IMG/VR virus record: IMGVR_UViG_2537561934_000016
DNA from: a virus
Lineage: Duplodnaviria; Heunggongvirae; Uroviricota; Caudoviricetes
DNA: 15,809 nt
Direction: 5' to 3' (one strand)
The notes beneath the pieces were generated by a model. That model did not search any database. It was not told where the DNA came from and saw only the letters and a list, made by a program, of their open reading frames with translations. Position 1 is the first letter of the stretch, and each line of letters opens with the position of its first letter. This document shows, piece by piece, positions 1 to 15,433 of the stretch. The position numbers and the translations under genes are program-made.

Positions 1-474
1 ATGTACAGTCCGGTACAAATAGCCAATAAATTCATAACGTTGGGAAACCAACATCATAATCCTCTGACCCACATGCAACTGCAGAAGCTTACTTATATTG
101 CCCATGGTTACTATTTAGCATTAACAGGTAAGCCTTTGCTCAATGAATGTGTCTCCGCGTGGAAGTACGGTCCAGTTATTCCTGGAATGTACGATGCTTT
201 CAAAGACTATGGGAATAAACCTGTTACGAATGTAGCAGTAGCTCCTTTTGGTGGCATCGTTACTATGGATCCGCAAGCAGAGAGCATTATCGGGGCTGTT
301 TATAAGTTTTACGGCTCGAAAAATGGAATTGAGTTATCAACTCTAACTCATATGCCAGGTACGCCTTGGTCACAAGCTTATAATGGTATTGGCTCGTCGA
401 TCATCTCAAATGATGCGATCAAGGCTTATTATCATGATTTATTGAATAACCGACAGCAATGTCAGGGCCTCTGA
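1..474 (+). CDS. Panacea-domain (DUF4065; SocA/GepA-like) protein, putative antitoxin, 157 aa
   Basis: ATG at base 1, so the true start could lie upstream of the window. Translation has the DUF4065-like core LQKLTYIAHGYYLAL ... SAWKYGPVIPGMYDAFKDYG, recognised from memory of the family. A 22-nt gap separates it from the next same-strand ORF. Confidence 0.65.
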   Translation: MYSPVQIANKFITLGNQHHNPLTHMQLQKLTYIAHGYYLALTGKPLLNECVSAWKYGPVIPGMYDAFKDYGNKPVTNVAVAPFGGIVTMDPQAESIIGAVYKFYGSKNGIELSTLTHMPGTPWSQAYNGIGSSIISNDAIKAYYHDLLNNRQQCQGL

Positions 475-496
475 AAAAGTAATATTCAGGGATGAC

Positions 497-1045
497 ATGT
501 CTCATAATTCAGATATCTATAAACTGATCGGAGCGGCCGCAGGTGTTGAAAATGGTCGCTCTGAAGCATCCTTAAACTCTACTGACAGTCAAGAGCAGGC
601 TTTTGAATCCGCATTTGAGCCGTCTAATCATGAACGCGATGATGATTCTTCTTCAGAAAATAAGGCTATTCTGGAGGAAGAAGAGTTTGGTTCTAATACT
701 GGTGCATTGCATGAGTTTATGCAGCAGAACAGAATGGACAGTCTTCAAGCTCAGCTTGATATGCTCAAATCACAAGTACGGGATAAGATAGCTGACGCAA
801 CTGGTAAAGAAATAGACAATGAGCTCCGGACAAAAATGGCATCATTCACGGTTTGGTTTATGTCGTGTTGGTGCTTATTCGTTGTCGCAATGTTTACATC
901 GTTTCTTATTGCACATGAAGGAAAGGCTCCAGTTGAAGCGATCGTTGCATTACTAGGTACAAGTACAATTAGTATTGTTGGTTTGGTTGGTTTCGTTGTT
1001 AGTGGATTGTTCAAATCAAGAAAAGATAGTGATAAAGAAAAATAA
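497..1045 (+). CDS. Hypothetical membrane protein, 182 aa; candidate toxin partner of the Panacea protein
   Basis: ATG start with AGGGA 5 nt upstream. Acidic, Ser-rich N-terminus (DDDSSSENKAILEEEEF), a central charged helical segment, and two C-terminal hydrophobic helices (FTVWFMSCWCLFVVAMFTSFLIA and IVALLGTSTISIVGLVGFVVSGLF). No family recognised. Confidence 0.6.
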   Translation: MSHNSDIYKLIGAAAGVENGRSEASLNSTDSQEQAFESAFEPSNHERDDDSSSENKAILEEEEFGSNTGALHEFMQQNRMDSLQAQLDMLKSQVRDKIADATGKEIDNELRTKMASFTVWFMSCWCLFVVAMFTSFLIAHEGKAPVEAIVALLGTSTISIVGLVGFVVSGLFKSRKDSDKEK

Positions 1046-1084
1046 CCCGTACATATACGGGTTATCCATAGTTTTAGTTTAGTT
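1031..1084. terminator. Bidirectional intrinsic terminator between convergent genes
   Basis: Perfect 8-bp stem AACCCGTA/TACGGGTT (1044-1051 and 1056-1063) with a 4-nt loop, T-rich on the plus side (GTTTTAGTTTAGTT) and T-rich on the minus side (reverse complement of GATAAAGAAAAAT). Confidence 0.5.
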
Positions 1085-1348
1085 ATATTTTTTTTCCGTT
1101 CTGACTTTTTCCCACTCAGCTCGCCCTTCTTCCCGTCTTTTGTCAATATATTCCGCAAGATCCTGAATGTTGATGCAGCGTTTTGCTTTTTGTGATGTAC
1201 CGATGCGATATGTAGGTACAGGCAACTTACAAGCGTTTGCTTTTGCTTCTGCTGTGGCTGGACTCATACCAAAGTATTTTTGACTAACTGCTGAGAGTTC
1301 AATGTTTGGGGTATTGAATTCAGCCATCAGTAAAAACAAGGTATTCAT
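1079..1348 (-). CDS. PrtN-family (pyocin-activator-like) small DNA-binding regulator, 89 aa
   Basis: Translation MNTLFLLMAEF ... IQDLAEYIDKRREEG matches the remembered PrtN-family pattern (MNTLFLLMA ... DLAAYID). ATG confirmed as cat at 1346-1348, with GGAG 8 nt upstream on the minus strand. Confidence 0.75.
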   Translation of the reverse strand: MNTLFLLMAEFNTPNIELSAVSQKYFGMSPATAEAKANACKLPVPTYRIGTSQKAKRCINIQDLAEYIDKRREEGRAEWEKVRTEKKYN

Positions 1349-1384
1349 ATCATTTCTCCATCATAACCGGCTGCACCCGGTGAG

Positions 1385-2200
1385 TTACTTATTCATTTCA
1401 ATAATATTATTTTCTATCATTGATTTATTTAAAACCAAAGAAGGAGCAAGATGGTTGTCTATTTTAAACAATGCATAACTTTTAAACTGTTGGTGATATC
1501 CGTAACTAATAAGGATGCTAGAAAAATCTCTTAATTCATCTTCTTTTAAAAAATTAAAATGAAATGGGTTGTCACCATTTATGAACAATGAAACATCTAT
1601 TATGCAGTATTTCTCTCTGTTGTCATTTGCATAGAAAAAAATATAAGACATTCTGTTTGTTAAGACAATGCCATTAAATTTTCTTATGTCTGTAGCTATT
1701 TTGTTTTCCATGTTTGGTGCCACATATTTATTTTCAGAAATACATTTAATTTCATCTCCAGATGTCGTGATTATATAAAAATGAAACTTATCATAAATAT
1801 CTAACTTAACTACGCCATCATTATTATAAAGGCTGCTAAATTTTGGTGGTTCAACTTTTAAAGAATCATAGTTCTTTAAAAGAAGAGGGGAGTCAAATTT
1901 AATAACTTGTAGTATCCCTTTACCTTCAACCTCCATATTGATTGAAGATATAGCAATTGCATTATCTCTTTTATTATTCAGGATTATGGTTGATATATGC
2001 ATGTCATATATTCTACTTGCATTTGCTGAATACGACACTGTCACCTTTTTTGATATTTTTTGCACGCCAAAATATATAGTGAAGGCAGCGGCAAGAATAG
2101 ATAAGAATTTAATGTCAAATAAGGACCATAGCCACATTAGTTGCTCAATTGCTTCAGAGTTAATCATTTGCTTTACCATTATCGCTGTAATACAACACAT
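1385..2200 (-). CDS. Hypothetical protein with N-terminal transmembrane anchor, about 271 aa, AT-rich; start uncertain
   Basis: The 6-frame ORF 1385..2221 opens on TTG. In-frame ATGs lie at 2200, 2179 and 2167 and none has a strong Shine-Dalgarno. A hydrophobic helix (LMWLWSLFDIKFLSILAAAFTIYFGV) follows. No family recognised. Sits between the YfdQ-like and PrtN genes on the same strand. Confidence 0.5.
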   Translation of the reverse strand: MCCITAIMVKQMINSEAIEQLMWLWSLFDIKFLSILAAAFTIYFGVQKISKKVTVSYSANASRIYDMHISTIILNNKRDNAIAISSINMEVEGKGILQVIKFDSPLLLKNYDSLKVEPPKFSSLYNNDGVVKLDIYDKFHFYIITTSGDEIKCISENKYVAPNMENKIATDIRKFNGIVLTNRMSYIFFYANDNREKYCIIDVSLFINGDNPFHFNFLKEDELRDFSSILISYGYHQQFKSYALFKIDNHLAPSLVLNKSMIENNIIEMNK

Positions 2201-2321
2201 GTGTATATATACGCAATGCAATTATTTTGCAAGTGCTTCATTTACTATCAATAGCTTCGTCACGTTATTGTTTAATGGTTCTTTATAGGGGCGGCAATAG
2301 TTAAAATTATCGCTTCCGTAA

Positions 2322-2345
2322 ACGCCCCCGCAGGGGCATTTGCAG
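2322..2345 (-). terminator. Weak candidate intrinsic terminator after the YfdQ-like gene
   Basis: On the minus strand, GCCCC-TGCG-GGGGC hairpin followed by GTTTAC. Short stem and poor U-tract, so low confidence. Confidence 0.25.
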
Positions 2346-2353
2346 TAATGAAA

Positions 2354-3178
2354 TCAGGCGGTGAAAGTACCAATAAAGGTTTCTACTTTGCTGTCTTTGA
2401 ATTTCTCAACAAGCAGATCACGAAATTCGTTAGCCATTTCTTCCTGTACCGCTTCCAGCTGAATAATGCGCAGAACCAGTACAGGACGATCGCCAGTGAT
2501 AATGCTGAGGCGTAATTTAAACGGACGTTCTTTCAGACCTTCAAACGGAACGCATTTAAATTCAAATGCCACTGGCATAATGTCTTTGGTCTTCGCTTCG
2601 ACAGACTCCATCAGGGAGCGTTTGCCGCTGAAGTCATTATCTTCAAAATCAGCGGTCTGGTTCGCTTCAATTGTGATTTTACGGATCGCCGCAGCCGCTT
2701 TGGTTGCCTGAATGGCGTCACCATTAGCATCAAAGCCCACAAGGTAGTCGGCCCAGTCTTCAATCCATTCTGCCAGTGACTTCTGGGAGTTACGCTCGCC
2801 GTTAACAGACAACAGAGCAGAGAACGGTGCTGTCTTTTTCAGTTTGAGAGTGGCGGTGTTATCTGCGTGACCTGGTTCATCAATAGTACCCAGGTTAAGC
2901 ACACTGACGGCACGCATATTATCGGCATCGATAAAGCAGCGGGTGCCTTCATCTGCAAGAACTTTAGAATAACGGGTAAAGTCATCGATGCTGGCAGTGG
3001 AAAGCGCACCACGGAAACGGAAGCGATTTAAATTAAATTTTTCCAGATCATGAATGCGGAAATTCTCAGGCAATGCCACAGCATCGGCACCAATCTTACT
3101 GATAATTTCATTAACACCCTGAGCAGAAATAAGGGCATGGATTTGATTAATTGCGGTTGCGTCTAAGTTCTGAGACAT
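2354..3178 (-). CDS. yfdQ: YfdQ-like prophage protein (DUF2303 family), 274 aa
   Basis: ATG (cat 3176-3178) with GAGGA 7 nt upstream. The 274-aa length and position directly downstream of a 120-aa gene match the yfdP-yfdQ pair of E. coli cryptic prophages as I remember it. The symbol rests on recalled length and synteny, not alignment. Confidence 0.7.
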
Positions 3179-3243
3179 AATAAGTCCTCACTATATAAAA
3201 ATATTCAGTGATGAGATAAATAATCAGTTTATTAAGAACGATA

Positions 3244-3606
3244 TTAACGACCTGCTGCGCGGAGTTTTCCGTCAGGTTCACCGGCAAGAGTCAGTAATTG
3301 TCCCTGGTCCTCCTGCAGAATAGTCAGGCGACCACCGCGATTGACATACATCGGCGTTTCGGTGGTGTCTTCTTCGGAAATTTTCCCGCGGTTAGTCGGG
3401 CGAACATATGAGAGTTTGTGTTTGATTTTCACACGGTTCTCATCAAATGGTTCGATTTCCAGGTTGAGTGAGACCTTACCTTTGGTTTTCGTGTTCATCA
3501 CACCGGAAGCGACTTCACTGAGAACTGCGCCGATTTTGGTTTCAAATACGCCGCCGTCCAGCTCCCCGATAAATGCCTGCACATCAGTACTGCGTTCGCT
3601 AGCCAT
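3244..3606 (-). CDS. yfdP: YfdP-like prophage protein, 120 aa
   Basis: The 6-frame ORF runs to 3837, but its N-terminal 77 residues are Cys/Arg-rich and not protein-like. The ATG at 3604-3606 has a strong GAGGAG 7 nt upstream and gives MASERSTDVQAFIGELDGG..., 120 aa. Symbol assigned from remembered length and adjacency to the YfdQ-like gene. Confidence 0.6.
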   Translation of the reverse strand: MASERSTDVQAFIGELDGGVFETKIGAVLSEVASGVMNTKTKGKVSLNLEIEPFDENRVKIKHKLSYVRPTNRGKISEEDTTETPMYVNRGGRLTILQEDQGQLLTLAGEPDGKLRAAGR

Positions 3607-3654
3607 TTTGCTGCTCCTCATCATATCGACCCTGCAAGGTCGGTTGGTTTCTCC

Positions 3655-3743
3655 ACAAAACAGAGAAGAACACCTGCGGTGGCAGCCGCCCGGATGGATT
3701 GGGTTATGAGCCCGTCGTCCGGTGATGCTCTTCTCTGTTTTGT
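3655..3743. repeat. Long inverted repeat (about 17 of 18 bp) flanking a roughly 53-nt GC-rich spacer
   Basis: ACAAAACAGAGAAGAACA (3655-3672) against TGCTCTTCTCTGTTTTGT (3726-3743); 15 contiguous bp are perfectly complementary. Confidence 0.45.
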
Positions 3744-3789
3744 AAAAAGAGCGGTACCAGCCGGAAGCAAGTGTACAAACTGGTACCGC
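3744..3789 (-). terminator. Candidate intrinsic terminator (minus strand)
   Basis: Perfect 10-bp inverted repeat GCGGTACCAG (3751-3760) / CTGGTACCGC (3780-3789) with a 19-nt loop. On the minus strand the hairpin is followed by TCTTTTTAC. Confidence 0.3.
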
Positions 3790-4238
3790 CAAAGCAGTGG
3801 CTGTTGTGGTGGGGTTGTCACTCAGGCGTATGGTCAACCTGACAATCCGGTGTCCTCAACGGGGAAAGAGTAACCCCGCCATACTTACCGCCGCGCCATT
3901 TCGCGGATTACCACAACGCTGAGAGCACTTAGCCAGTTACGGCACCACACTTTGTCGCGGTTCCATAAATGCCCTCATCGTTGCACCCTGGTCTCTTCCC
4001 AGGCGTCAAACCGGATCGCCACGCTGGTTAGGCGTCTTATCAGCATCATCATTGACTTGCACATTCCGGCTACCTGGTTTGTTTGCCCGAGCAAGGAGTG
4101 GATTGTCCCCTTTAACGTCCCCAGACCGCTAACGACGCATGTGCCATACGCCGTGTTACAACCAAATTTAGTTTAATCTTGCCTGTGTTATGTATCCTAT
4201 AGATACATTATGTATCTTAAGGGTACATTGTCAAGTAT

Positions 4239-4260
4239 AAAAAAACCTGCCGAAGCAGGT
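4239..4260 (-). terminator. Intrinsic terminator downstream of the cI-like repressor gene
   Basis: Minus-strand sequence AACCTGC-TTCG-GCAGGTT followed by TTTTTTT (plus-strand A run 4239-4245, stem 4245-4260). Lies 13 nt past the repressor stop. Confidence 0.5.
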
Positions 4261-4272
4261 TATAAATATTGA

Positions 4273-4947
4273 TTAGGCCTTTATTTTGTATCTTCTTGGT
4301 TTTCCTGAGAAAATCACTGTACCAATTATAGAGCAATTACCGTTGATCTTAATGTAAGGTTCAGGCCAGTTTGGGTTTAATGCTTTGAGGTAACGCTGTG
4401 TTCCATCTTCTATCAACCGCTTGAAGGTGGTTTCGCCTGTATCGTGCATCAATGCAATAACGTCGTCACCGTGGCAGGCAGGGACTTCAGGATCAACAAA
4501 AATCATGTCTCCCGGGCGGTACTCATCAATCATTGAATCACCAATCACCCGCAAGATATAAGTCATTTCGCCACAGGGTACAGGGCAGGGATAAGTTTCT
4601 GCTGTGCTCAAATCAACCTCAGAATAGCCAACTTCTTTCCATGCTCCGGCCTGTACCCATGATATGACAGGGACTAACGTTATTTGTTTGTTAGTGATTG
4701 AAACGTCAGGTTTTTTTGTGATGTTCGTTGTCTGGTGTTCTTGATCAAGCCATCCGACAGGCAGGTCGAAACATTTTTCGATGTGCCGTGCCATGCTGTC
4801 ACCGATATTTTTAGTTGCACCATCTCCCATAAACCTGCTGGTCTGGGTTGGCTCGCGATCAATCATGGTGGCAAAGGAAGAATTCCCGCCAACACCATCT
4901 CTCAGTTTTCTGGCGTTAGACCGCCGGATGTCATGGACTGTTTTCAT
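4273..4947 (-). CDS. cI: Phage CI-type repressor, N-terminal DNA-binding domain plus C-terminal S24 (LexA-like) autopeptidase domain, 224 aa
   Basis: C-terminal domain carries the S24 catalytic motifs: Ser in ILRVIGDSMIDEY and Lys in TTFKRL. The N-terminal region ends in the DLPVGWLD pattern typical of phage repressor DNA-binding domains. Divergent from a cro-like gene. Confidence 0.85.
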   Translation of the reverse strand: MKTVHDIRRSNARKLRDGVGGNSSFATMIDREPTQTSRFMGDGATKNIGDSMARHIEKCFDLPVGWLDQEHQTTNITKKPDVSITNKQITLVPVISWVQAGAWKEVGYSEVDLSTAETYPCPVPCGEMTYILRVIGDSMIDEYRPGDMIFVDPEVPACHGDDVIALMHDTGETTFKRLIEDGTQRYLKALNPNWPEPYIKINGNCSIIGTVIFSGKPRRYKIKA

Positions 4948-4963
4948 AAAGAAATTAAAACCT

Positions 4964-4982
4964 TTGTACCGATAAGGTACAA
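4964..4982. promoter_or_regulatory. Candidate operator in the cI-cro intergenic region
   Basis: 19-bp palindrome TTGTACC-GATAA-GGTACAA with perfect 7-bp arms, 17 bp upstream of the cI start and about 55 bp upstream of cro. A further GGTACA half-site lies near 5026-5031. Confidence 0.4.
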
Positions 4983-5037
4983 GTATCTTGAAGGTTCATC
5001 TCAATCATGTAATATGTATACCGGAGGTACATATTGT

Positions 5038-5247
5038 ATGAAAGCGTATTGGGACTCTTTAACCAAAGAACAGCAGGGTGAGTTGGCCGGAAAAGTTGGC
5101 TCAACACCAGGCTACTTACGGCTGGTTTTCAATGGTTATAAAAAAGCCAGTTTTGTGCTGGCTAAAAAACTTGAGCAATGCACGTCAGGTGCAATTACGA
5201 AATCTGACTTAAGACCGGATATCCGGAAGACTGGGATGTCCTGCTGA
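5038..5247 (+). CDS. cro: Cro/YdaS-like HTH regulator, 69 aa
   Basis: ATG at 5038 with GGAGG 10 nt upstream. Translation MKAYWDSLTKEQQGELAGKVGSTPGYLRLVFNGYKK ... GAITKSDLRPDI resembles prophage Cro/YdaS proteins, which end in a DLRPDIF-type motif. The track's upstream extension to 4735 is antisense to cI and rejected. Confidence 0.7.
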   Translation: MKAYWDSLTKEQQGELAGKVGSTPGYLRLVFNGYKKASFVLAKKLEQCTSGAITKSDLRPDIRKTGMSC

Positions 5248-5933
5248 CGGATGTTTTTCATAAAAGCTGGCCGCTGGCCTCCGATCCTTCTCAACAAATG
5301 CGACTGATGGCAATGGCGGTGGACTCCGGCGGTGAAGACGGGGTCACTGATAATGCCTATAAATTCTGGCGTCGTTGCCGTCGTGATGGCCTTGGTAAAC
5401 GTATTTACCTGTTTAAGGGCGACAGCATCCGGCGCGCAAAACTGATCACCCGTACATTCCCTGATAACACCGGACGAACGGGCCGACGGGCGCAGGCCGC
5501 AGGTGATGTACCGCTCTGGCTTCTTCAGACGGATGCCCTGAAAGACCGGGTGAATAACGCGTTATGGCGTGACTCGCCAGGTCCCGGCTATGTGCATTTC
5601 CCTGACTGGCTGGGGAGCTGGTTTTACGACGAACTGACGTATGAAGAGCGGAGCAGTGACGGGAAATGGAGTAAGCCGGGTCGCGGTGCCAACGAAGCTT
5701 TTGACCTGATGGTGTATGCCGAGGCTCTGGTCATTCTGCATGGATACGAAAAGATCCGCTGGCCGGATGCACCGGAGTGGGCGAGCCGGGAAACCTGGCT
5801 GGAGTGTGTCCCGGACAGTACCGAACCGTCACCCACACCGGAACCGGTATCCACGCCTGTTAAAAAACAAAAACGGAAGAAAACAGTAACTGACGATGTT
5901 AACCCCTGGCTGACTTCCGGAGGATGGTTATGA
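5208..5933 (+). pseudogene. 3' fragment of lambda-type terminase large subunit (gpA-like C-terminal region), no start codon
   Basis: Reading frame opens straight after a TGA at 5205-5207 with no plausible start. Its stop overlaps the next start in an ATGA arrangement, as at the lambda A-W junction. Followed by gpW-like and portal genes. The ATPase N-terminal part and the small subunit are absent. Confidence 0.65.
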
Positions 5934-6142
5934 ATCAGAATGATATTGAAGCCATGATTCAGCGTTATACGGAAGCTGAAATGGCGGTGCTGGACGGAAA
6001 ATCCGTCACTTTTAATGGTCAGCAGATGACCATGGAAAACTTATCTGAGATCCGGCAGGGGCGGCAGGAGTGGGAGCGCCGCCTTGCGGCTCTGATTACA
6101 CGACGACGGGGGCATCCCGGGTACCGGCTGGCGAGGTTCTGA
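5930..6142 (+). CDS. gpW-like head-tail joining protein, 70 aa
   Basis: ATG at 5930 with GGAGG 7 nt upstream. C-terminus RRRGHPGYRLARF resembles the lambda gpW C-terminus (RRRGPAGFYV, recalled). Lies between terminase and portal as in lambda. Confidence 0.65.
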   Translation: MNQNDIEAMIQRYTEAEMAVLDGKSVTFNGQQMTMENLSEIRQGRQEWERRLAALITRRRGHPGYRLARF

Positions 6143-7494
6143 TGGCAATTCTTGATGATGTGATTGGCGTTTTTTCACCAGGATGGAAAGCGGCAAGGCT
6201 GCGTTCCCGAGCGGTGATCCAGGCTTATGAGGCCGTAAAAACGACGCGGACACACAAAGCCCGACGGGAGAACCGAACTGCCGACCAGTTAAGCCAGTAC
6301 GGGGCCGTGTCGTTACGTGAGCAGGCCCGTTACCTTGATAACAACCACGATCTGGTCATTGGTGTATTTGACAAGCTGGAAGAACGGGTGGTGGGGAAAA
6401 ACGGGATTATTGTCGAGCCACATCCGGTATTACGCAATGGGGCCATTGCCCGTGACCTGGCAGCGGAGATACGCACCCGATGGAGTGAATGGTCTGTCAG
6501 TCCGGAAGTCACCGGGCAGTTTACCCGCCCGATGCTGGAACGTCTGATGCTGCGTACCTGGCTGCGCGATGGTGAGGTGTTTGCCCAGATGGTTTCCGGG
6601 CGCATAAACAGCCTGACGCCTTCTGCCGGTGTTCATTTCTGGCTGGAGGCGCTCGAGCCGGACTTTATTCCCATGACCAGTGATGAGAGCAACAGGCTGA
6701 ATCAGGGCGTGTTTGTTGATGACTGGGGGCGTCCCGAAAAATATCTGGTGTATAAAAGCCGTCCTGTATCCGGACGGCAGATGGAAACCAAAGAAGTGGA
6801 TGCAGAGCGAATGCTGCATCTTAAATTTGTTCGCCGTCTGCACCAGATGCGCGGGACGTCTTTATTGTCCGGTGTACTGATCCGCCTCAGTGCCCTGAAA
6901 GAGTATGAAGATTCTGAGCTGACTGCAGCAAGGATCGCCGCTGCTCTGGGGATGTACATCCGGAAAGGCGACGGACAGAGCTATGAACCGGATGGTAATG
7001 GCAGCAAGGAGAATGAACGCGAGCTTACCATTCAGCCAGGCATTATTTACGACGATCTGAAACCCGGCGAAGAAATCGGAATGGTGAAGTCGGATCGCCC
7101 CAATCCTAATCTTGAAACTTTTCGTAATGGTCAGTTGCGTGCAGTGGCGGCTGGTAGTCGTCTGAGTTTTTCCAGTACAGCGCGCAACTATAACGGCACT
7201 TACAGCGCCCAGCGTCAGGAGCTGGTTGAGTCTACTGATGGCTACCTGATCCTGCAGGACTGGTTTATTGGTGCCGTCACCCGCCCGATGTATCGTGCAT
7301 GGCTGAAACAGGCTGTGGCATCCGGTGTTATCAGGTTACCCCGCGATCTTGACCGTTCTTCACTGTATACCGCGGTGTATTCCGGACCAGTGATGCCGTG
7401 GATTGACCCTGTTAAGGAGGCTGAGGCCTGGAAAATCCAGATTCGTGGTGGAGCGGCGACAGAATCAGACTGGGTATCCGGCAGGAAACACTGA
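6142..7494 (+). CDS. Phage portal protein (lambda gpB position), 450 aa, possibly C-terminally truncated
   Basis: ATG at 6142 overlaps the gpW stop (TGATG). Called by synteny (terminase, W, portal) and size; the sequence is not obviously close to lambda gpB from memory. The track start at 6070 is an upstream extension and rejected. Confidence 0.6.
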   Translation: MAILDDVIGVFSPGWKAARLRSRAVIQAYEAVKTTRTHKARRENRTADQLSQYGAVSLREQARYLDNNHDLVIGVFDKLEERVVGKNGIIVEPHPVLRNGAIARDLAAEIRTRWSEWSVSPEVTGQFTRPMLERLMLRTWLRDGEVFAQMVSGRINSLTPSAGVHFWLEALEPDFIPMTSDESNRLNQGVFVDDWGRPEKYLVYKSRPVSGRQMETKEVDAERMLHLKFVRRLHQMRGTSLLSGVLIRLSALKEYEDSELTAARIAAALGMYIRKGDGQSYEPDGNGSKENERELTIQPGIIYDDLKPGEEIGMVKSDRPNPNLETFRNGQLRAVAAGSRLSFSSTARNYNGTYSAQRQELVESTDGYLILQDWFIGAVTRPMYRAWLKQAVASGVIRLPRDLDRSSLYTAVYSGPVMPWIDPVKEAEAWKIQIRGGAATESDWVSGRKH

Positions 7495-7498
7495 ATGA

Positions 7499-10342
7499 AT
7501 GCACCCGTGCGGAGCAGTCGGCCAGCGTGGTGCTCTGGGAACCCATGCGACTGATGCTGCAGGCTCAGCACGTGCAGCCAGCACATCAGCCGGGCAGGCC
7601 GCGACGTCGGCTCAGTCAGCGTCTTCCAGCGCAGGAACGGCATCAACAAAGGCTACTGAAGCATCAAAAAGTGCTGCCGCTGCAGAGTCCTCAAAAAGCG
7701 CGGCGGCTACCAGTGCCGGTGCGGCGAAAACGTCAGAAACGAATGCTGCAGCGTCACAAAAATCTGCAGCCACTTCTGCATCCACCGCGACCACGAAAGC
7801 GTCAGAAGCTGCCACCTCAGCCCGGGATGCGGCGGCCTCAAAAGAGGCAGCGAAATCATCAGAAACGAGCGCAGCCTCGAGCGCCAGTAGTGCAGCCTCT
7901 TCGGCAACGGCGGCAGGAAATTCCGCGAAGGCCGCAAAAACGTCTGAGACGAATGCGGATAACAGCGCACAGGCGGCAGCGGCCTCACAAACTGCATCGG
8001 CAAACTCCGCGACAGCAGCCAAAAAATCAGAAACCAACGCGAAAAATAGCGAGGCAGCAGCAAAGAGCAGCGAAACTAATGCTAAATCCAGTGAAACAAA
8101 CGCGGCGAAATCTGCAGCGGACGCACTTAATTATCGCAACCAGGCACAATCCGTTGTTGGTAACAATATTGGTCTTGGTGAAGTTGCTATGACCTGCACT
8201 GATATCTCTGTTGAGCCATCAGGTTATATTGGATTTATCAGGATTTACATCTCAGCGAAAGGTTATCCATCAGTAGCGTCTAGTGCCGGGGATAATCTTA
8301 TTTCTGGTTATATAGTTAGATCAGAAGTGTCAACAAAAAGATATTCCGGTCTATTTGTTGGTTCAGATACAAAATCATTGTATTCGTACATTTACAGCCA
8401 AAGTTCTGGCCCGCAATGGATACGTCATACCCGCAGAGATGAATTAAGCCGCTTTGGTCAAAATGAATCAACAACTCGTATGTATGGTCCAACTGGTGAT
8501 CGTTTCTTTGAAATCCATACTAACGGGAGTTGGGGGGTTTATGATTCTTCTTCTGGACAATGGTCTCCGTTAGGTTTAGCCCAGGGTGGTACTGGTGGAA
8601 GAACTATCGAGCAAGCACGTGCGAACTTGCGGGTAATGTATGAGCAAAAAGCTGGCCTTGCTAATACTGACCTAAACACCCTTACCGGTGAATATTCTGG
8701 TTTCTATCAACAACCAACGAGCGCTTACGCAACAGAAGAATTAAATTACCCAATCGGTCTGGCGGGCGCTTTAATAGTGCTCCAAACGAGAGCCAACACT
8801 GCTTCTTCCTGCGTTCAGGTGTACCACCCTTATAATAATCCGGGAATTACTTATAGACGAATATATGAAGGAGGTAGCGGTACCTGGTCTGAATGGAAGA
8901 GAGATGTATCAACAGAAAGGGTTGAAGAGGGAAAAGAAACAACTTACGTATATTCTACGTATTCTTCAGGCGCACCACGCTTACAGGTTTCCAAATCTGG
9001 TTTGTGGGGTTGTCATAATGGCACTGGCTGGTTGCCATTAGCTGTTGGGCAAGGAGGTACAGGTGCGACAACAGTAGAAGATGCGCGAAACAACTTAAGT
9101 CTTGGCGAAAGTAGCGCAGTTAAATTTAAAAACCTTACTTTAACCGAAGCGCTCGACACGACATTAGGACTGCTTACAAAAACAGGACGAGACTGGAACG
9201 CTCAGCATACTGATAACGTCGACAAATTTAGACCAATTGCAGGCAGTACAAACGGCCCGGCAGGCTCTATGGTTCTTGGCGGCATTCATGTTCAATTTAG
9301 TAAAAATTATGCTGTGCAGTTCGGAGGCCGCAATTCCGGTTTTTGGGGAAGAACAATTGAAAATGGAACGACGCAGGAATGGAAGAAATTACTAACAGTA
9401 GACGATCTCAATTCATCTACCGCTCTTGCTGTCAGGTCATTAACCACATCTAACCCGATAAAATCTGGCGGAGGGCGGATTGATGTCCTTGGAAGCACGT
9501 CAGACTATAGCAAAATGGATTGCTTTGTACGTGGGTTTGATAGCACCGGTAATTCTCTCGCGTGGGCGTTGGGTTCATCAGTCGGCGTAAGTAAGATGCT
9601 GTCGCTAAAAAATTTCTTTAGCGGAGCTGAGATACTGCTAAATGGTAATGACGGCGCGGTTCAACTCAAAACAGGTGCTGTTAACGGTGCTAAAGCGCAG
9701 GCGCTCACTATCAACAAGGATGAGGTTAACTCAACTGTTGATTTAACTCTTACAAAACAAACAGGGACTGGCAATCGTTTTGTTTTACAGAACTTAGGTA
9801 ATACAGAACTACCATTTGCTGTCAAGGTGTGGGGTTCAGGTGATCGACAAAACGTTTTTGAGGTTGGAACGTCTGCCGCGTATCTGTTTTATGCTCAAAA
9901 AACATCGTCAGGTCAGCTGTTTGATGTAAACGGTGCTATTAACTGTACAACACTGAATCAGTTATCAGACCGCGAGCTGAAAGACAATATTCAGATTATC
10001 AGTGACGCAACCGAAGCTATCCGTAAAATGAACGGGTACACCTACACACTTAAGGAAAACGGACTGCCTTACGCTGGTGTTATTGCACAGGAAGCAATGG
10101 AGGCAATACCGGAAGCGGTAGGCTCATTCACTCATTACGGTAAAGAGTTGCAGGGACCAACGGTTGACGGCAATGAATTACGTGAAGAAACACGTTATCT
10201 GAATGTTGACTACGCCGCCGTGACGGGCTTACTTGTTCAGGTCGCCCGTGAAACAGATGATCGCGTTACCGCGCTGGAAGAAGAAAACGCAGAATTAAAA
10301 CAAAGATTATCTGCAATTGAGGCGGCGCTTGCCTCTAAATAA
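7499..10342 (+). CDS. stf: Side tail fibre (Stf-like) protein, N-terminally truncated, with C-terminal S74 intramolecular-chaperone domain, 947 aa
   Basis: Residues from about 15 onward (ATDAAGSARAASTSAGQAATSAQ ... AAATSAGAAKTSETNAAASQKSAATSAS) match an internal region of lambda Stf as I recall it. The C-terminal part begins with the S74 autoproteolysis signature SDRELKDNIQ (Ser codon at 9965-9967) and ends in a coiled coil. The frame opens 1 nt after a TGA. Confidence 0.8.
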   Translation: MHPCGAVGQRGALGTHATDAAGSARAASTSAGQAATSAQSASSSAGTASTKATEASKSAAAAESSKSAAATSAGAAKTSETNAAASQKSAATSASTATTKASEAATSARDAAASKEAAKSSETSAASSASSAASSATAAGNSAKAAKTSETNADNSAQAAAASQTASANSATAAKKSETNAKNSEAAAKSSETNAKSSETNAAKSAADALNYRNQAQSVVGNNIGLGEVAMTCTDISVEPSGYIGFIRIYISAKGYPSVASSAGDNLISGYIVRSEVSTKRYSGLFVGSDTKSLYSYIYSQSSGPQWIRHTRRDELSRFGQNESTTRMYGPTGDRFFEIHTNGSWGVYDSSSGQWSPLGLAQGGTGGRTIEQARANLRVMYEQKAGLANTDLNTLTGEYSGFYQQPTSAYATEELNYPIGLAGALIVLQTRANTASSCVQVYHPYNNPGITYRRIYEGGSGTWSEWKRDVSTERVEEGKETTYVYSTYSSGAPRLQVSKSGLWGCHNGTGWLPLAVGQGGTGATTVEDARNNLSLGESSAVKFKNLTLTEALDTTLGLLTKTGRDWNAQHTDNVDKFRPIAGSTNGPAGSMVLGGIHVQFSKNYAVQFGGRNSGFWGRTIENGTTQEWKKLLTVDDLNSSTALAVRSLTTSNPIKSGGGRIDVLGSTSDYSKMDCFVRGFDSTGNSLAWALGSSVGVSKMLSLKNFFSGAEILLNGNDGAVQLKTGAVNGAKAQALTINKDEVNSTVDLTLTKQTGTGNRFVLQNLGNTELPFAVKVWGSGDRQNVFEVGTSAAYLFYAQKTSSGQLFDVNGAINCTTLNQLSDRELKDNIQIISDATEAIRKMNGYTYTLKENGLPYAGVIAQEAMEAIPEAVGSFTHYGKELQGPTVDGNELREETRYLNVDYAAVTGLLVQVARETDDRVTALEEENAELKQRLSAIEAALASK
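7540..8110 (+). repeat. Ala/Ser/Thr-rich degenerate tandem repeats inside the tail-fibre gene
   Basis: Repeated units of the form AAKTSETNA / AAKSSETNAKSSETNAAKSA. The GC-rich low-complexity DNA gives spurious long ORFs in other frames. Confidence 0.5.
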
Positions 10343-10348
10343 TATTAA

Positions 10349-10370
10349 GGGGCTGTGCGCCCCGTTTTAT
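10349..10370 (+). terminator. Intrinsic terminator after the tail-fibre gene
   Basis: GGGGC-TGTGC-GCCCC hairpin followed by GTTTTATT, 7 nt after the stop codon. Confidence 0.6.
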
Positions 10371-10384
10371 TGGGTAGGATGAAA

Positions 10385-10672
10385 ATGGGTATAACACCTT
10401 TCCTTCATGCACTTTGTGCTGTGGCTGCGCAGATACTGGTGGGGCTTTTTACCGGAAACTGGGTTTACGGAGCGATAGCCAGTTGTACGTTCTTCATTGC
10501 GGGCGAACACACCCAAGCATAATATCGCTGGATTGAAATGTTCGGGCATGGCAAGCGGATTAACATGCCGTGGTGGGGCGGTTTTGATCCACGCGCATGG
10601 GATGTGGCAAGCCTGATGGATTTTGCTGTGCCGATGGTAGCGTGTCTTCTGATCTGGCTGTTGATCCGTTGA
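10385..10672 (+). pseudogene. Small hydrophobic protein gene interrupted by one in-frame TAA (45 aa, stop, 49 aa)
   Basis: ATG at 10385 with AGGA 5 nt upstream. Translation MGITPFLHALCAVAAQILVGLFTGNWVYGAIASCTFFIAGEHTQA, then TAA at 10520-10522, then in the same frame YRWIEMFGHGKRINMPWWGGFDPRAWDVASLMDFAVPMVACLLIWLLIR. Below the ORF-track size cutoff. Family not recognised. Confidence 0.3.
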
Positions 10673-10680
10673 ACATAAAA

Positions 10681-10729
10681 AGCCGCAGCAACTTGCCATG
10701 GCAGGATACTGCGGCTGGTTTGTGAGTTT
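10681..10729. terminator. Candidate bidirectional terminator between the small membrane ORF and the RT gene
   Basis: 8-bp stem AGCCGCAG (10681-10688) / CTGCGGCT (10709-10716) enclosing a perfect 10-bp palindrome TGCCATGGCA. T-rich on both flanks (GGTTTGTGAGTTT on plus; TTTTATGT on minus). Confidence 0.35.
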
Positions 10730-10850
10730 AAATAGTGTGTTTATTGCGATATATTTTAATGACTTAATGGATTACATATCTATGATATTCCTGAAATATC
10801 CTCTTCAAGCTCTTTTACTGATTTCGCAATTTTAAATTTAAACTTCCTCT

Positions 10851-12149
10851 CTATTTCACTATTGCTAAGTTTTTTTCCTTCTCTTTACCTATCCACATAG
10901 AAACAAGTTCTCGTTTCTGAGATATATGTAGATTGTCAAAGTTAGGTATGTATTTAAAAGTCTCCGCTCTACCTCTGCGGAGTTCATAGAAAGTTTTAAT
11001 CAAAGATTTTGGTTTTATTTCTGATGAAAGGCCGAATCGGCGGATAAGATTATTGATAGTATGATTAACAGAGCGAAGTTGAGCTGTTGAGGTTATTTGT
11101 GAGAAGTACGATACCCATCCCAATCGTTTACCTTCAAACACACATCCCGTAATTCTGAGATTTAGTTTCCACTGACAATATGCAACAGCTCGTTCTTTAT
11201 CACGCTTACTTTTAGCTTGTAGTAGAGCGTGCCTATATGCAGTAAAAATTTTTGCTAAGGATGACTCAAATCTAAGAATGCTCTCATGTTTTATCAATAA
11301 TTCTCGATTTTCTATGTGGTATCCCAAAAAGTTAAAACTTTCATCCAAACTGCCTACTTTGGATTTTGAGTTCTCTTCATTTAATGGATGTGGGTTTAAA
11401 TTTAATGATTGAAGCTTATCAATGATATGAGAAGCTATTTTTGTTGCTTGATATTTTGGTGTTAAAATAAGAATGTCATCAACGTATCGCATGTACCATA
11501 TGTCATGCATTTTATTGATTTCATCATCGAAATTAGATAGTGATATTTCAGCTAAAATGTTTGATATCGCTAATCCCTGAGGTACTCCTCTGGTATTATT
11601 AGGGATACCTTTGCTTCCTGTGGTTCCACTTACAGTAGGCACGATTAATGATGATGTTATTAACTGTCTAATTTCTTTTTTTCTAATTTTATTTTTTATT
11701 GCATTAATTATCAATTTATGTTCAATTGAAGGATAGAAACTTTTAAGATCTATTTTTGCATATTCAGCATATAGACTGTTGTTTAATGCTTCTTTCAATG
11801 AGTCAATTACTGTATGTGGTAGTTTTAATCTGGACTTAGGATATATTTCCGTAAGGCATTCACAGAGAGCTCTAAGAGTAATTCTGTCCCTAGCAGTTGG
11901 TATGGAAATCTGTCTGGGTGTAGAGTTAGCGCCTTTAGATATTAATTTTTCTTTATATGCTGTAAATTTGTAATTGCCAGAATTAACCTTTTCAAAAATG
12001 AAAGTGATCTCATTTTTTATTGTCAAATCAAGTTTTGATGGGCGAATCCGATCTATGCCAATCGCTCCTGATTCTTTGATTTTTTCAGAGTATACTTTTA
12101 GAAGATTTTTTTTCGAGAATGACTTTTTAAAAATTCTGCTTGCAGTCAT
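10851..12149 (-). CDS. Reverse transcriptase (defence-associated Abi/UG/retron-like RT), about 432 aa
   Basis: RT motifs are readable in the translation: IPTARDRITLRAL, GVPQGLAISNILAEISLSNFDDEI, catalytic YMRYVDDILIL (YVDD) and FNFLGYHI, followed by a roughly 130-aa C-terminal extension. The track start at 12155 is TTG; the first ATG is at 12149. The start overlaps the 3' end of the upstream membrane-protein gene by 23 nt. Strongly AT-rich. Confidence 0.85.
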   Translation of the reverse strand: MTASRIFKKSFSKKNLLKVYSEKIKESGAIGIDRIRPSKLDLTIKNEITFIFEKVNSGNYKFTAYKEKLISKGANSTPRQISIPTARDRITLRALCECLTEIYPKSRLKLPHTVIDSLKEALNNSLYAEYAKIDLKSFYPSIEHKLIINAIKNKIRKKEIRQLITSSLIVPTVSGTTGSKGIPNNTRGVPQGLAISNILAEISLSNFDDEINKMHDIWYMRYVDDILILTPKYQATKIASHIIDKLQSLNLNPHPLNEENSKSKVGSLDESFNFLGYHIENRELLIKHESILRFESSLAKIFTAYRHALLQAKSKRDKERAVAYCQWKLNLRITGCVFEGKRLGWVSYFSQITSTAQLRSVNHTINNLIRRFGLSSEIKPKSLIKTFYELRRGRAETFKYIPNFDNLHISQKRELVSMWIGKEKEKNLAIVK

Positions 12150-12678
12150 AGTCAATCCAAAGATATATTAATGGGAGTATATAAAGTGCGGCAGTAATAA
12201 ATATTCGAAGTAATATCCATAAAATAACAATTATTTTTTCTTTTTGTGTGGGGATCCTCGTCTTAAGTCCAACTTGAGTTACCCTTGAAATTTTATCATC
12301 TATGTCACGGTGATTCTCAACCTCATTGAGCAAATTAAAATATTTTTCTTTCTGTTCAAGAGATAACTGTTGACTGGTGGTAATGTCAAAATAGAGTCGC
12401 TGTAGTGCAATATAATTCCTTCTCATGGCTATTGCTCGACCACGAAAATCTAGGTTAGATACGATCAGAGAAATACCCAGTAGAGCCACTGAAAGTATCG
12501 CCGCAACGACATCTGTATTATCTCCTAGAACCTTTGGAAATCGCAACGTTACAATTGAAAGTACCGCACTCAATATAGCATACCAAACGAGGATAAATTG
12601 AGAGTGTTTTTCAAGCCATTCTAGTCGATGGTGCGCTTGGATACGTGCTTTATATGTAAACCAAATATTGTCATGCAT
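12127..12678 (-). CDS. Multi-pass membrane protein (SLATT-like topology by inference), 183 aa, co-operonic with the RT
   Basis: ATG (cat 12676-12678) with AAGGA 6 nt upstream. Hydrophobic helices ILVWYAILSAVLSIVTLRF, VVAAILSVALLGISLIVSN and IIVILWILLRIFITAALYILPLIYLWI. The 3' end overlaps the RT start. Confidence 0.7.
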   Translation of the reverse strand: MHDNIWFTYKARIQAHHRLEWLEKHSQFILVWYAILSAVLSIVTLRFPKVLGDNTDVVAAILSVALLGISLIVSNLDFRGRAIAMRRNYIALQRLYFDITTSQQLSLEQKEKYFNLLNEVENHRDIDDKISRVTQVGLKTRIPTQKEKIIVILWILLRIFITAALYILPLIYLWIDYDCKQNF

Positions 12679-12900: not shown

Positions 12901-13149
12901 TTAATGAACAAACCACTCGTCAGCAGACTCCCAGGTATCTTTCAGAGTCTCCTGAACAAAAGTTTTAGCTGAATCTTTATCAGCGGTGCGCGTAACAGAA
13001 AGGCCATCGTTGCTGGTGGCTTTTACGATCACTTCTACATCGTCATAACGTTTACTGATGCGTCGGGTTAATTCTTCCTTTAACGCATCCACAGCACCGG
13101 TTGGCATTTTAGTCATTTTTTCTTTGGCTATGCAGATTTCAATACGCAT
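12901..13149 (-). CDS. DinI-family (DNA-damage-inducible protein I-like) protein, 82 aa
   Basis: Translation [31 protein letters not shown] ... [11 protein letters not shown] matches the remembered DinI pattern (MRIEVTIAK ... ETWESADDWFV). AGGGGA 6 nt upstream of the ATG. Two LexA boxes lie directly upstream. Confidence 0.8.
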
Positions 13150-13209: not shown

Positions 13210-14307
13210 TCAAGAGGTCTTATTTCTGCTCCTTTGGAGTTCTTCAAAACGATTATGTAAAGATTTCGGATACAGTTCGGTATATACCTGCCATAGCACG
13301 TTTAATGAACGATGCCCTGTAACCTGAGCGACTTCCTCAATACTAAAACCAGCCTCAAATAAGCGACTTGCCCCTTCTCTACGCAAATCATGGTATCTCA
13401 GATCTTTAATACCTAATTTGCTTCTTACCCTCTGAAATCCTGCGGTAACAGAAGTGCTGTTATATGGAAAAATGAATTCTGATTTTTTGGGTTGTCGCTG
13501 GACGATATCCCAGGCTTCCCCAAGCAAGGCAACTTTCATATGGTTGCCTTCCTTTTTACGTGGATCTTTCCTGTCTCTTACTAGTATAGATTTTTGTTCC
13601 TGGTCGAGATCTTCCCATCGTAACCGGCATACTTCTCCGATTCGCATACAGGACCACACAGAAAATTTGAGGATATCAACGAACGGAATTTTTGAGCATT
13701 TATGAGTAGATCGTTGTTGAAGGCCTTCAATGAGCATGTTCAGTTCATCAGATGCTGGTCTACGATTACGACGGTTTGATTTACCAATCAAACCGAGTTT
13801 AAGTAGATATGGACGAGCGCTTTTCGCCGGGTTTGATGTGTAATTGATTCCGTATACAGGTTTTGCCGCATCCAGAACACTGCCAAGATAACTAACATCG
13901 TGGCTGACTGTTGCTGGGCCTGCACCAGCGTTGTTTCTTAGCCTGCAATGTTCAATTACGTCATTTTCTGTCAGTTCAGATAGTTTGATCGCGGAGATGT
14001 CACTATCCATAAGCAGTTCCAGCACATATCTTTTAGTACGGCCTGCTTTACCTCCGGCATTTGGGTCATTTAAATATTTGTGTAGTAAGTCACGGACTGT
14101 AAGTCCGTCAACAGCATTTGATGATGGAATGCCATATAGATCTAATTCCATCACTTTCTGTGCGCCCCATGTTTTGGCATGAGCATGTTTAGGGAATGTT
14201 TTGCTTTCCCTGTAAGTGATAACACCTTTTTCTTTGATAATCACATTACAGCGATAGCGTGGTGTGCCATCGGATTTTAGTCGTTTCTCTATGTTATAGT
14301 ACGCCAT
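13210..14307 (-). CDS. int: Tyrosine recombinase / phage integrase (dusA-associated type by context), 365 aa
   Basis: Integrase-sized protein whose C-terminal region HDLRREGASRLFEAGFSIEEVAQVTGHRSLNVLWQVYTELY carries the His/Arg/Tyr pattern of tyrosine recombinases. Encoded divergently from dusA, 88 bp from its start. Confidence 0.9.
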   Translation of the reverse strand: MAYYNIEKRLKSDGTPRYRCNVIIKEKGVITYRESKTFPKHAHAKTWGAQKVMELDLYGIPSSNAVDGLTVRDLLHKYLNDPNAGGKAGRTKRYVLELLMDSDISAIKLSELTENDVIEHCRLRNNAGAGPATVSHDVSYLGSVLDAAKPVYGINYTSNPAKSARPYLLKLGLIGKSNRRNRRPASDELNMLIEGLQQRSTHKCSKIPFVDILKFSVWSCMRIGEVCRLRWEDLDQEQKSILVRDRKDPRKKEGNHMKVALLGEAWDIVQRQPKKSEFIFPYNSTSVTAGFQRVRSKLGIKDLRYHDLRREGASRLFEAGFSIEEVAQVTGHRSLNVLWQVYTELYPKSLHNRFEELQRSRNKTS

Positions 14308-14362: not shown

Positions 14363-14395
14363 TAACGCGAGAAAAATAGCCTGAAATGTTCAAAA

Positions 14396-15433
14396 ATGCA
14401 CGATAATCCTGAAACACAGAAAACTAATCAAACCAGCGTGATGCCTGAAAAAACTGGCGCTTACTGGAGTTCTCGGTTTAGCATTGCTCCTATGCTCGAC
14501 TGGACGGACAGACATTGCCGCTATTTCTTGCGTCTGCTTTCCCGCAATACGTTGCTGTATACCGAAATGGTGACCACAGGGGCGATTATTCACGGTAAAG
14601 GTGATTACCTGGCGTACAGTGAAGAAGAACATCCGGTAGCGTTGCAACTCGGCGGTAGCGATCCGGCGGCGCTGGCACAGTGTGCGAAGCTGGCAGAAGC
14701 GCGTGGATATGATGAGATCAACCTGAATGTCGGCTGCCCGTCTGACCGGGTGCAGAACGGCATGTTTGGTGCGTGTCTGATGGGTAATGCGCAGCTGGTT
14801 GCCGACTGCGTGAAAGCGATGCGCGATGTGGTGTCGATTCCAGTGACGGTGAAAACGCGTATTGGCATCGATGACCAGGACAGCTATGAATTTCTCTGCG
14901 ATTTCATCAACACCGTTTCCGGCAAAGGCGAGTGTGAGATGTTTATCATCCACGCACGTAAAGCCTGGCTTTCGGGGTTAAGCCCGAAAGAAAACCGTGA
15001 AATCCCGCCGCTCGATTATCCGCGTGTGTATCAACTGAAGCGTGACTTTCCGCATCTGACAATGTCGATTAACGGTGGTATCAAGTCGCTGGAAGAGGCC
15101 AAAGCACACCTGCAACATATGGATGGCGTGATGGTCGGGCGCGAGGCGTATCAGAATCCGGGTATTCTGGCGGCGGTAGACCGGGAGATCTTTGGTTCCT
15201 CGGATACCGATGCCGATCCAGTGGCGGTAGTGCGCGCCATGTATCCGTACATTGAGCGTGAACTCAGCCAGGGGACGTATCTCGGCCATATTACCCGGCA
15301 TATGTTGGGCTTGTTCCAGGGTATTCCTGGCGCGCGGCAGTGGCGGCGTTATTTAAGTGAAAATGCCCATAAAGCGGGTGCAGACATTAATGTGCTGGAA
15401 CACGCGCTCAAACTGGTGGCGGATAAGCGTTAA
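14396..15433 (+). CDS. dusA: tRNA-dihydrouridine(20/20a) synthase DusA, 345 aa
   Basis: Translation carries the Dus family core ([19 protein letters not shown] ... [13 protein letters not shown] ... catalytic region) and ends ... LKLVADKR, as in E. coli DusA. An alternative in-frame start is at 14441 (MPEKTG). The 5' end may be element-supplied. Confidence 0.9.

Follow-up and report, generated by a model that had tools for sequence, protein, structure and literature searches.

The window, which denotes here the complete stretch of 15,809 nucleotides of the IMG/VR virus record IMGVR_UViG_2537561934_000016, harbors a defective lambda-like prophage of 15.8 kb that is integrated at the 5' end of dusA in Escherichia coli. 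Between the gene for its portal protein and the gene stf for its side tail fiber, at positions 7440 to 7545, this prophage carries a composite deletion scar. The scar was probably generated by two separate illegitimate deletions that proceeded by end joining, with a portal end set by a Chi site and a recurrent breakpoint in the minor tail gene L. The two junctions, D2 (portal/L) and D3 (L/stf), together account for the loss of 16 genes and of about 15.7 kb from the head and tail region. Prophage decay of this kind is ordinary, and the Prokaryotic Genome Annotation Pipeline (PGAP) already marks the genes concerned as partial.

Anatomy of the scar

The anatomy was obtained by a blastn comparison of the window with an intact sister prophage that occupies the same site in dusA in E. 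coli NCTC11129 (locus L008, 40.6 kb), and by alignments of the junctions to their parents. Four collinear blocks resulted:

Window 1-5223: L008 721-5943
Window 5220-7476: L008 18321-20577, 99.3% identity
Window 7472-7541: L008 29305-29374, gene L nucleotides 6-75, E=1.7e-29
Window 9181-11686: L008 38071-40577

The gene order in L008 starts with a dusA fragment, a Panacea-domain gene, prtN, yfdQ/P, ymfK, ymfT, ymfL, replication and Q genes, and lysis genes, continues with terS, terL, a small gpW-like gene, the portal gene, a fused protease/capsid gene, and Z-U-V-G-T-H-M-L-K-I-J, and ends after J with lom, stf, a reverse transcriptase gene, and a SLATT gene. Portal gene and stf are both full length there and 15 kb apart, with 16 genes between them, which rules out that they are natural neighbors. 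In the window, an integrase gene adjoins dusA, a duplicate of the 5' end of dusA is located at the far end, and the element is collinear with its intact relative save for internal deletions. The proposal of a preliminary description of this DNA, a deletion scar in a defective lambdoid prophage, is thereby upheld. The features of the scar and of a further deletion upstream of it, D1, are as follows; a slash indicates a joint:

5220..5223: junction D1 (ymfT/terL), TATC common to both parents, 12.4 kb lost
6142..7494, plus strand: C-terminally truncated portal gene, 445 native codons (6142-7476), then SGRKH and a stop codon from foreign DNA
7475..7476: junction D2 (portal/L), TA common to both parents, about 8,730 bp lost compared to NCTC11129 (L008 20578-29307)
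7475..7541, plus strand: L remnant (nucleotides 9-75 of the minor tail gene L, 67 nucleotides), in-frame codons 7476-7541 encode IRQETLNECTRAEQSASVVLWE
7540..7541: junction D3 (L/stf), AA common to both parents, about 6.9 kb lost
7499..10342, plus strand: open reading frame (ORF) of 947 residues, N-truncated side tail fiber, residues 1-14 from L-remnant DNA out of frame, residues 15-947 corresponding to Stf residue 143 to the end

The lambda-portal-family ORF stops with the TGA at 7492-7494 and the 947-residue ORF opens with the ATG at 7499; the interval contains no capsid, tail-shaft, or tail-tip genes. All this is as described before. The portal gene, however, is not intact but ends in its homology at 7476, 18 nucleotides ahead of the stop codon, with 445 of 502 codons retained. 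The 57 C-terminal residues of the native protein of 502 residues are lost. The full PF05136 domain is retained (positions 3-354 of 354, E=4.6e-82), the remnant is not followed by head protease or capsid genes, and its PGAP label is "incomplete; missing C-terminus." Neither does the fiber gene follow the portal gene "at once," since the L remnant intervenes, and the one deletion of the earlier description is replaced by two junctions, at 7476/7477 and 7541/7542.

D2 joins nucleotide 1335 of the portal gene to nucleotide 9 of gene L. D3 joins L nucleotide 75 to stf codon 143, as seen in an alignment to the parents L008 for L and EC052 (L007) for Stf, and the loss comprises L beyond this point, the genes K, I, J, and lom, and codons 1-142 of stf. 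From 7537 on, the window matches the stf allele of EC052, beginning with codon 143 of this allele. The L remnant is identical at 67 of 67 positions to L of strain EC596 and at 69 of 70 positions to that of NCTC11129. Its product would correspond to gpL residues 4-25 in a third reading frame, which are 22 of the about 232 codons of a complete gene L. A start codon is lacking, K does not follow, and PGAP lists the remnant in public genomes as "phage minor tail protein L," incomplete. Portal gene, L remnant, and fiber ORF are consequently in three different reading frames. The stop codon of the portal ORF and the ATG of the 947-residue ORF are both accidental because the L remnant is read here in two wrong frames.

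That a single deletion placed an intact portal gene directly next to an interior position of stf, with the fiber keeping its own start codon, is scarcely credible under these circumstances. The ORF coordinates on which this explanation was based are correct, and the two ORFs are only 4 nucleotides apart, but the missing portal codons, the 67 nucleotides of L between portal gene and stf, and the position of the ATG inside this remnant, in the wrong frame, are incompatible with it.

End joining and the separateness of D2 and D3

All junctions examined possess microhomologies of 2 to 7 nucleotides (TA at D2, AA at D3, TATC at D1), and neither inserted DNA nor an insertion sequence (IS) element was found at any of them. 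End joining in E. coli depends on RecBCD but not on RecA and uses microhomologies of 1 to 3 nucleotides, or 1 to 9 nucleotides in the cited model of alternative end joining (A-EJ) (10.1101/605246). Because of their short microhomology and the lack of an insert or an IS, the junctions match this RecA-independent, RecBCD-dependent pathway and agree with the A-EJ pattern of 1 to 9 nucleotides of microhomology, no insert, and no IS. D2 and D3 may each have been formed in this way after DNA breaks. Two other candidates were rejected: an IS-mediated adjacent deletion, which is ruled out by the lack of an IS at any junction, and recombination of the dusA integrase at a secondary site, which is ruled out by an att core that resembles neither TATCCGG nor GGGTA.

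The distribution of the junctions is informative with respect to the number of events. A search of 5,426 complete E. coli genomes identified D3 together with a 100% identical fiber ORF in 17 genomes, while intact alleles of the fiber with about 97% identity were present in approximately 100. The joint to the left of D3 in the 17 carriers was portal/L in 6, ymfL/L in 10, and terL/L in 1 case. D1 was present in 2 of the 5,426 genomes, which are two of the six portal/L carriers and resemble the window in this respect, and another portal/L carrier, strain AR434, has an additional essD/portal scar. In IMG/VR, D2 was found in 3 contigs, 2 of them also with D1. This leads to five left-hand states: portal/L alone, portal/L plus D1, essD/portal plus portal/L, terL/L, and ymfL/L. 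D2 and D3 should be separate events because D3 is constant in the carriers while the left joint occurs in three forms, and because the joint between L nucleotides 8 and 9 also exists without D3 in other prophages.

Alternatively, D2 and D3 may have been formed in one complex event, either by replicative template switching or by short-patch double illegitimate recombination that copied 67 nucleotides of L. Such an event would be in agreement with the very short L island, the 2 nucleotides of microhomology at each of its junctions, the collinear arrangement of the pieces on the same strand, and the absence of an intermediate with only D2 or only D3 from the 5,426 complete genomes; an ectopic single-strand patch mechanism has been described. 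This explanation is nevertheless unlikely: the L joint recurs alone in prophages in which L is otherwise intact, so that D2 needs no tie to D3, and a single event does not explain one constant D3 next to three different left joints.

The 17 otherwise identical carriers provide a useful dated series, with the five left-hand states resolved to the nucleotide. The scar itself is of small consequence, being one more case of the whittling of a prophage that annotation pipelines have already flagged. Outside of the region discussed, relatives without D1 contain a scar between a truncated rusA and a truncated lysozyme gene, with Q and the holin genes gone (L001 3644-4018, strain 035152). AR434 is without this rusA/lysozyme scar and has a different Q/lysis module.

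A recurrent endpoint in gene L

The native gene L starts with ATG CAG GAT ATC CGG CAG G. In the window, as well as in the ymfL/L and terL/L strains, foreign DNA abuts the TATCCGG of this sequence. A scan of IMG/VR and metagenomes for the pattern TATCCGGCAGGAAACACTGAATGA, preceded by any base except A, returned natural variants of codon 3 and five unrelated left partners, here given with names according to Pfam: a lambda-type terminase gpA at about residue 83, the capsid protein E at model position 274 of 329, an E homolog (E') at model position 181, the tail protein Z at residue 29 as an in-frame fusion, and the tail protein T. At least eight distinct left partners thus abut L nucleotide 9, namely, ymfL, terL, portal, lambda gpA, capsid E at two positions, Z, and T. 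The E/L joint was also present in 5 complete-genome records, for instance in the argU-site remnant of EC596. Control scans for non-native joints at the offsets -2, -1, +1, and +27 yielded none, and the same was true for another GATATC inside L. Not every event uses the L site, as demonstrated by a deletion that ended elsewhere, Z'/'M in strain E1433.

The L end of D2 would accordingly be a nucleotide-precise recurrent breakpoint directly 5' of TATCCGG. The best guess is a site-specific nick or break, with the right-hand end remaining unresected. A strand-specific lesion 5' of TATCCGG may produce a 5' end at a constant position, and upstream 3' ends would be joined to it after their resection.

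Sequence variation around the site was also recorded. All four bases occur at L nucleotide 8, directly 5' of the breakpoint (L008 29307; L006, L021-L024), so that codon 3 is GAT, GGT, GTT, or GCT, and no variants at nucleotide 6, nucleotide 7, or the wobble nucleotide 9 appeared in the IMG/VR scans. A second copy of TATCCGG resides in terL and provides the right end of D1 and the left end of the terL/L joint. This copy also coincides with a sharp mosaic boundary between functional terL alleles: those of RM11911 (L031) and NCTC11129 are identical at 97 of 120 positions (81%) to the left of ^TATCCGG (L008 18321) and at 270 of 270 to the right. D1 creates a perfect 12-nucleotide palindrome, CCGGATATCCGG, at window positions 5215-5226 and recreates the 10-mer GGATATCCGG that is found at the native start of gene L.

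It may be argued that the shared endpoints are not hot spots at all and result from identity by descent plus an ordinary choice of microhomology. D1 and the terL/L joint are indeed explained by a 10/11 imperfect and a perfect 7-nucleotide microhomology, and ymfL/L could be derived from D2 via a shared GGGTA. The ymfT, terL, and L sites are alike at 8 to 10 of 11 positions, which is a chance expectation in a 40-kb genome: according to our own binomial estimate, about 5 sites of 9/11 similarity should exist per strand of a 40-kb phage. Part of the sharing of endpoints is therefore ordinary microhomology choice, but the use of the L site by many partners is not explained in this way. The partners gpA, E, E', Z, and T belong to different phage types, so that no common event is possible, and the control offsets were empty. 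Together with the independent portal breakpoint described below, this makes an explanation without any hot spot quite unlikely.

Several candidate activities and motifs were considered for the L site and discarded. EcoRV-like cutting at GATATC was rejected: the prophage has 18 such sites, and the one examined as a control, inside L, gave no non-native joints; moreover, all L joints retain the T 5' of ATCC, which a blunt GAT^ATC cut would not supply. None of the sites of invertases (gix/hix), IncP/VirD2-type nic, the gyrase consensus, RusA/RuvC, or Vsr fits in a comparison by eye, and a nic-like TATCCTG^C, located on the L bottom strand, is displaced by 5 nucleotides. The motif TATCCG[AG][AC]AG[AG] occurs only at the three used sites of the prophage, but was defined post hoc, and microhomology choice explains D1 and terL/L. 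A 21-mer, TATCCGGCAGGAAACACTGAA, is present as an exact match in two unrelated metagenome-assembled genomes (L027 2232-2253; L028 1586-1607) with no similarity of the flanking regions, which is probably due to chance, with 0.2 matches expected.

The portal breakpoint and Chi

L008 contains 15 Chi sites (GCTGGTGG) on the top strand and 5 on the other strand. All of them are located in 6242-20588, an interval that extends from the early region into the portal gene; the last 20 kb, with the head, tail, and fiber genes, are free of Chi in both orientations. The last top-strand Chi, at 20581-20588, starts 3 nucleotides past the portal breakpoint (20577). RecBCD degrades DNA up to the nearest Chi, and the DNA to the left of Chi is the part that it preserves (PMC6393298, PMC3375238). 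RecBCD moving to the left from any break in the head or tail region would meet the portal Chi first. The portal end of D2 may thus have been determined by the last Chi in the correct orientation, at which RecBCD arrived while degrading the DNA leftward.

The probability of a random breakpoint within 6 nucleotides of any Chi is P=0.002. In strain 23GD35035, a portal/lom deletion has its portal end at the same nucleotide (GGGTAC/CG), and the probability that a second breakpoint is within 1 nucleotide of the first is 7e-5. The portal gene of this strain is 98% identical, which indicates a different lineage and an independent event; its prophage has genes that the window lineage lost, and vice versa, which also contradicts identity by descent of the shared endpoint. 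Scans of IMG/VR for more events with this portal end returned the known lineage only. Altogether, these data are suggestive, but no proof, that Chi sets the portal endpoint. With respect to the genetic features of A-EJ, a dependence on RecBCD and LigA and an independence of RecA, this Chi next to the portal breakpoint is the only suggestive sign. Chi as a cause of the L endpoint is ruled out by the Chi-free last 20 kb of the intact prophage.

Two observations can be added. The window retains a single Chi, at 13012. In 23GD35035 (L004 5222-6578), the retained portal segment has a GGGTAC at either border in the parental DNA (L008 19220, 20573), both junctions are at GTAC, and the right junction creates GGTACC.

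Taken one step further, the decay of these prophages could be partly deterministic, with a nick or break 5' of TATCCGG in L codon 3 and in terL fixing an unresected right end, which is joined repeatedly to variable upstream ends, and with the last correctly oriented Chi fixing the other end where a Chi is present. This generalization is tentative and rather doubtful. It would account for the at least eight joints to L and the re-use of the joint within one clone, for the four bases at L nucleotide 8 beside the invariant nucleotides 6, 7, and 9, and for the mosaic boundary in terL and the twice-used portal breakpoint. A number of points weigh against a Chi-set and site-specific origin of two separate deletions. 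No nuclease or nickase that cuts 5' of TATCCGG is known to us. The five additional examples of L joints came from an exact-pattern search, so that their specificity is visible only from the control offsets. The left ends in ymfT, ymfL, terL, and L have no adjoining Chi, and D2 removes the Chi itself, which requires trimming of a 3' flap. Finally, there is the lack of intermediates among the complete genomes: the order and even the separateness of D2 and D3 is something we infer. If confirmed, prophage deletions would be channeled by specific DNA sites plus RecBCD and Chi instead of being random, which would bear on models of the rates of prophage decay and on signals of "domestication" and would point to a sequence-specific nicking or breaking activity on lambdoid tail genes.

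The truncated side tail fiber

The following features concern the fiber ORF and its possible expression:

4964..5015, plus strand: operator-like palindrome TTGTACCGATAAGGTACAA plus weak promoter candidate TTGAAG-16-TAATAT, upstream of ymfT, read by eye
7495..7554, plus strand: 19-codon ORF (MNAPVRSSRPAWCSGNPCD) from the better-spaced ATG at 7495, overlapping the start of the fiber ORF
9965..10120, plus strand: Peptidase_S74 intramolecular chaperone domain (PF13884), residues 823-874, Pfam E=4.7e-13, motif LSDRELKDNI
10349..10363: terminator-like GC hairpin, 7 nucleotides past the fiber stop codon

Stf homology was said to begin about 15 codons into the ORF, and it does so at residue 15, the counterpart of residue 143 in a complete Stf of 1,201 residues; the junction peptide is MHPCGAVGQRGALGTHATDAAGSAR. 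The fiber is N-truncated, as predicted: PF08400, which covers residues 1-134 of the intact Stf of NCTC11129 (E=3e-72), is absent from the ORF of the window. This domain ("Prophage tail fibre N-terminal") is the one that attaches the fiber to the virion. The truncated fiber is thus without the tail-attachment domain, in an element without a tail. The claim that the fragment kept its own ATG along with full C-terminal domains holds for the C terminus, where Peptidase_S74 is retained, but not for the start codon, which arises out of frame from the L codons AAT GAA TGC. NCBIfam had no match for the fiber ORF, and PGAP calls the gene a pseudogene or a shorter protein of 717 residues.

Concerning translation, an in-frame TGA at 7496-7498 directly precedes the ATG at 7499, with the portal stop codon 4 nucleotides upstream. 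The L remnant contains a Shine-Dalgarno-like element, CAGGAA, with a pairing energy to the anti-Shine-Dalgarno sequence of -5.7 kcal/mol versus -6.0 kcal/mol for the native stf start, at a spacing of 12 nucleotides to the ATG at 7499 and of 8 nucleotides to that at 7495. It is possible that a free truncated fiber is made, judging from the open frame and the near-native strength of this element.

Concerning transcription, a scan for sigma-70-like promoters with a threshold of 9/12 predicted none near the junction; the candidate TTGAAG-16-TAATAT matches at 8/12 and is below this threshold. D1 removed Q and the late promoter region in the variant of the window and brought the late genes that remain to within about 2.3 kb downstream of the promoter of the immunity region. 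Positions 4964-4982 form a perfect inverted repeat, TTGTACC-GATAA-GGTACAA, between ymfK, which encodes a LexA-like repressor, and ymfT, and this repeat probably serves the immunity region as an operator. Read-through from the repressor-controlled ymfT promoter, next to the repressor gene ymfK, might be the only plausible source of transcripts of the remnant operon in this variant. The truncated fiber is most probably a remnant that is expressed weakly or not at all.

A truncated fiber that was domesticated and expressed, for example as a free receptor-binding protein that blocks phage adsorption, with the scar kept by selection, is very unlikely. Such a role would be compatible with the intact frame of 947 codons and the complete S74 chaperone domain, with a sequence that is 100% identical in 17 of 17 carriers while the left-hand sequence was repeatedly deleted, with the Shine-Dalgarno-like element as strong as the native one, and with the precedent of StfE2 of e14, a chimeric tail fiber protein that blocks adsorption of T2 (PMC12529663). 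On the other hand, copies that are all identical allow no statement on purifying selection, no promoter was predicted, the accidental ATG competes with the better-placed one at 7495, and the PGAP calls do not indicate a gene of this length.

Comparison with known systems

The cryptic prophage Qin of E. coli AR_0369 has a similar history: its head and tail genes are deleted, the packaging gene terL is joined to an internal part of stf by a short microhomology, and the C terminus of the fiber and the downstream genes are retained. In contrast to the window, with its two junctions around an L remnant, no in-frame fusion, and a break at Stf residue 143, Qin contains a single in-frame junction that leads to a fusion of 1,360 residues at Stf residue 66 or so. 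In the lineage of the Qin-type terL (L014/L010/L015), the left ends of two independent deletions, terL/stf (AR_0369) and terL/J (EC0026B), are only about 19 nucleotides apart, with no Chi near these left ends.

The remnant of EC596 at the DLP12 site (argU) is also a multi-scar element, in which the capsid joint E'/L uses the identical nucleotide of L and a further scar connects a K fragment with an N-truncated tail fiber (K'/'stf). It differs in an otherwise complete L, in the type of the fiber, in the second breakpoint, and in the integration site.

Chi-rich lambdoid phages without a recombination module, the class of phage LLS with a Gifsy-2-like fused protease-capsid gene, have been described with respect to lytic growth (PMC12315714). 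The sister prophage is similar to this class in its 15 versus 5 Chi sites by orientation and in its fused gene for a ClpP-like protease and the major capsid protein. The prophage that carries the scar is itself of this Chi-rich, lambda-like type, in which protease and capsid are fused in one head gene. A fixing of the endpoints of prophage deletions by Chi is a proposal of the present analysis and is not contained in that publication.

The large deletions with microhomologies of 1 to 3 nucleotides, or 1 to 9 nucleotides in the A-EJ model of Chayot, that were obtained in E. coli (10.1101/605246) are similar to those of the window; however, the breaks in these experiments were made by Cas9, and here one end is nucleotide-precise across lineages. 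StfE2 of e14 is likewise a tail fiber-derived protein of a cryptic prophage without a virion (PMC12529663), but it arose through PinQ inversion and its phenotype has been demonstrated, whereas the window has no invertase and its fiber is a predicted product.

Other features of the prophage

The integration site is at the right end of the window:

13210-14307, minus strand: integrase gene, adjoining dusA
14396-15433, plus strand: dusA

The att crossover region at dusA ends with ATGCTCGA. The prophage brings along a new 5' end for dusA, which shares just 83% identity with the bacterial one that it displaced (window 14393-14499 versus L008 309-415). At the attL end (window 1-1045), a Panacea-domain gene and its neighbor for a protein of 182 residues are arranged in a layout reminiscent of a toxin-antitoxin pair, and PADLOC gave no match for either gene. 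Between the fiber remnant and the dinI-like and integrase genes, on the minus strand at 10851-12678, a UG17-class reverse transcriptase gene (E=7.9e-151) and a SLATT-domain gene ("RTasSLATT," E=1.5e-56) overlap. This pair was retained in every deletion variant and is a candidate anti-phage system of the defense-associated reverse transcriptase (DRT) type.

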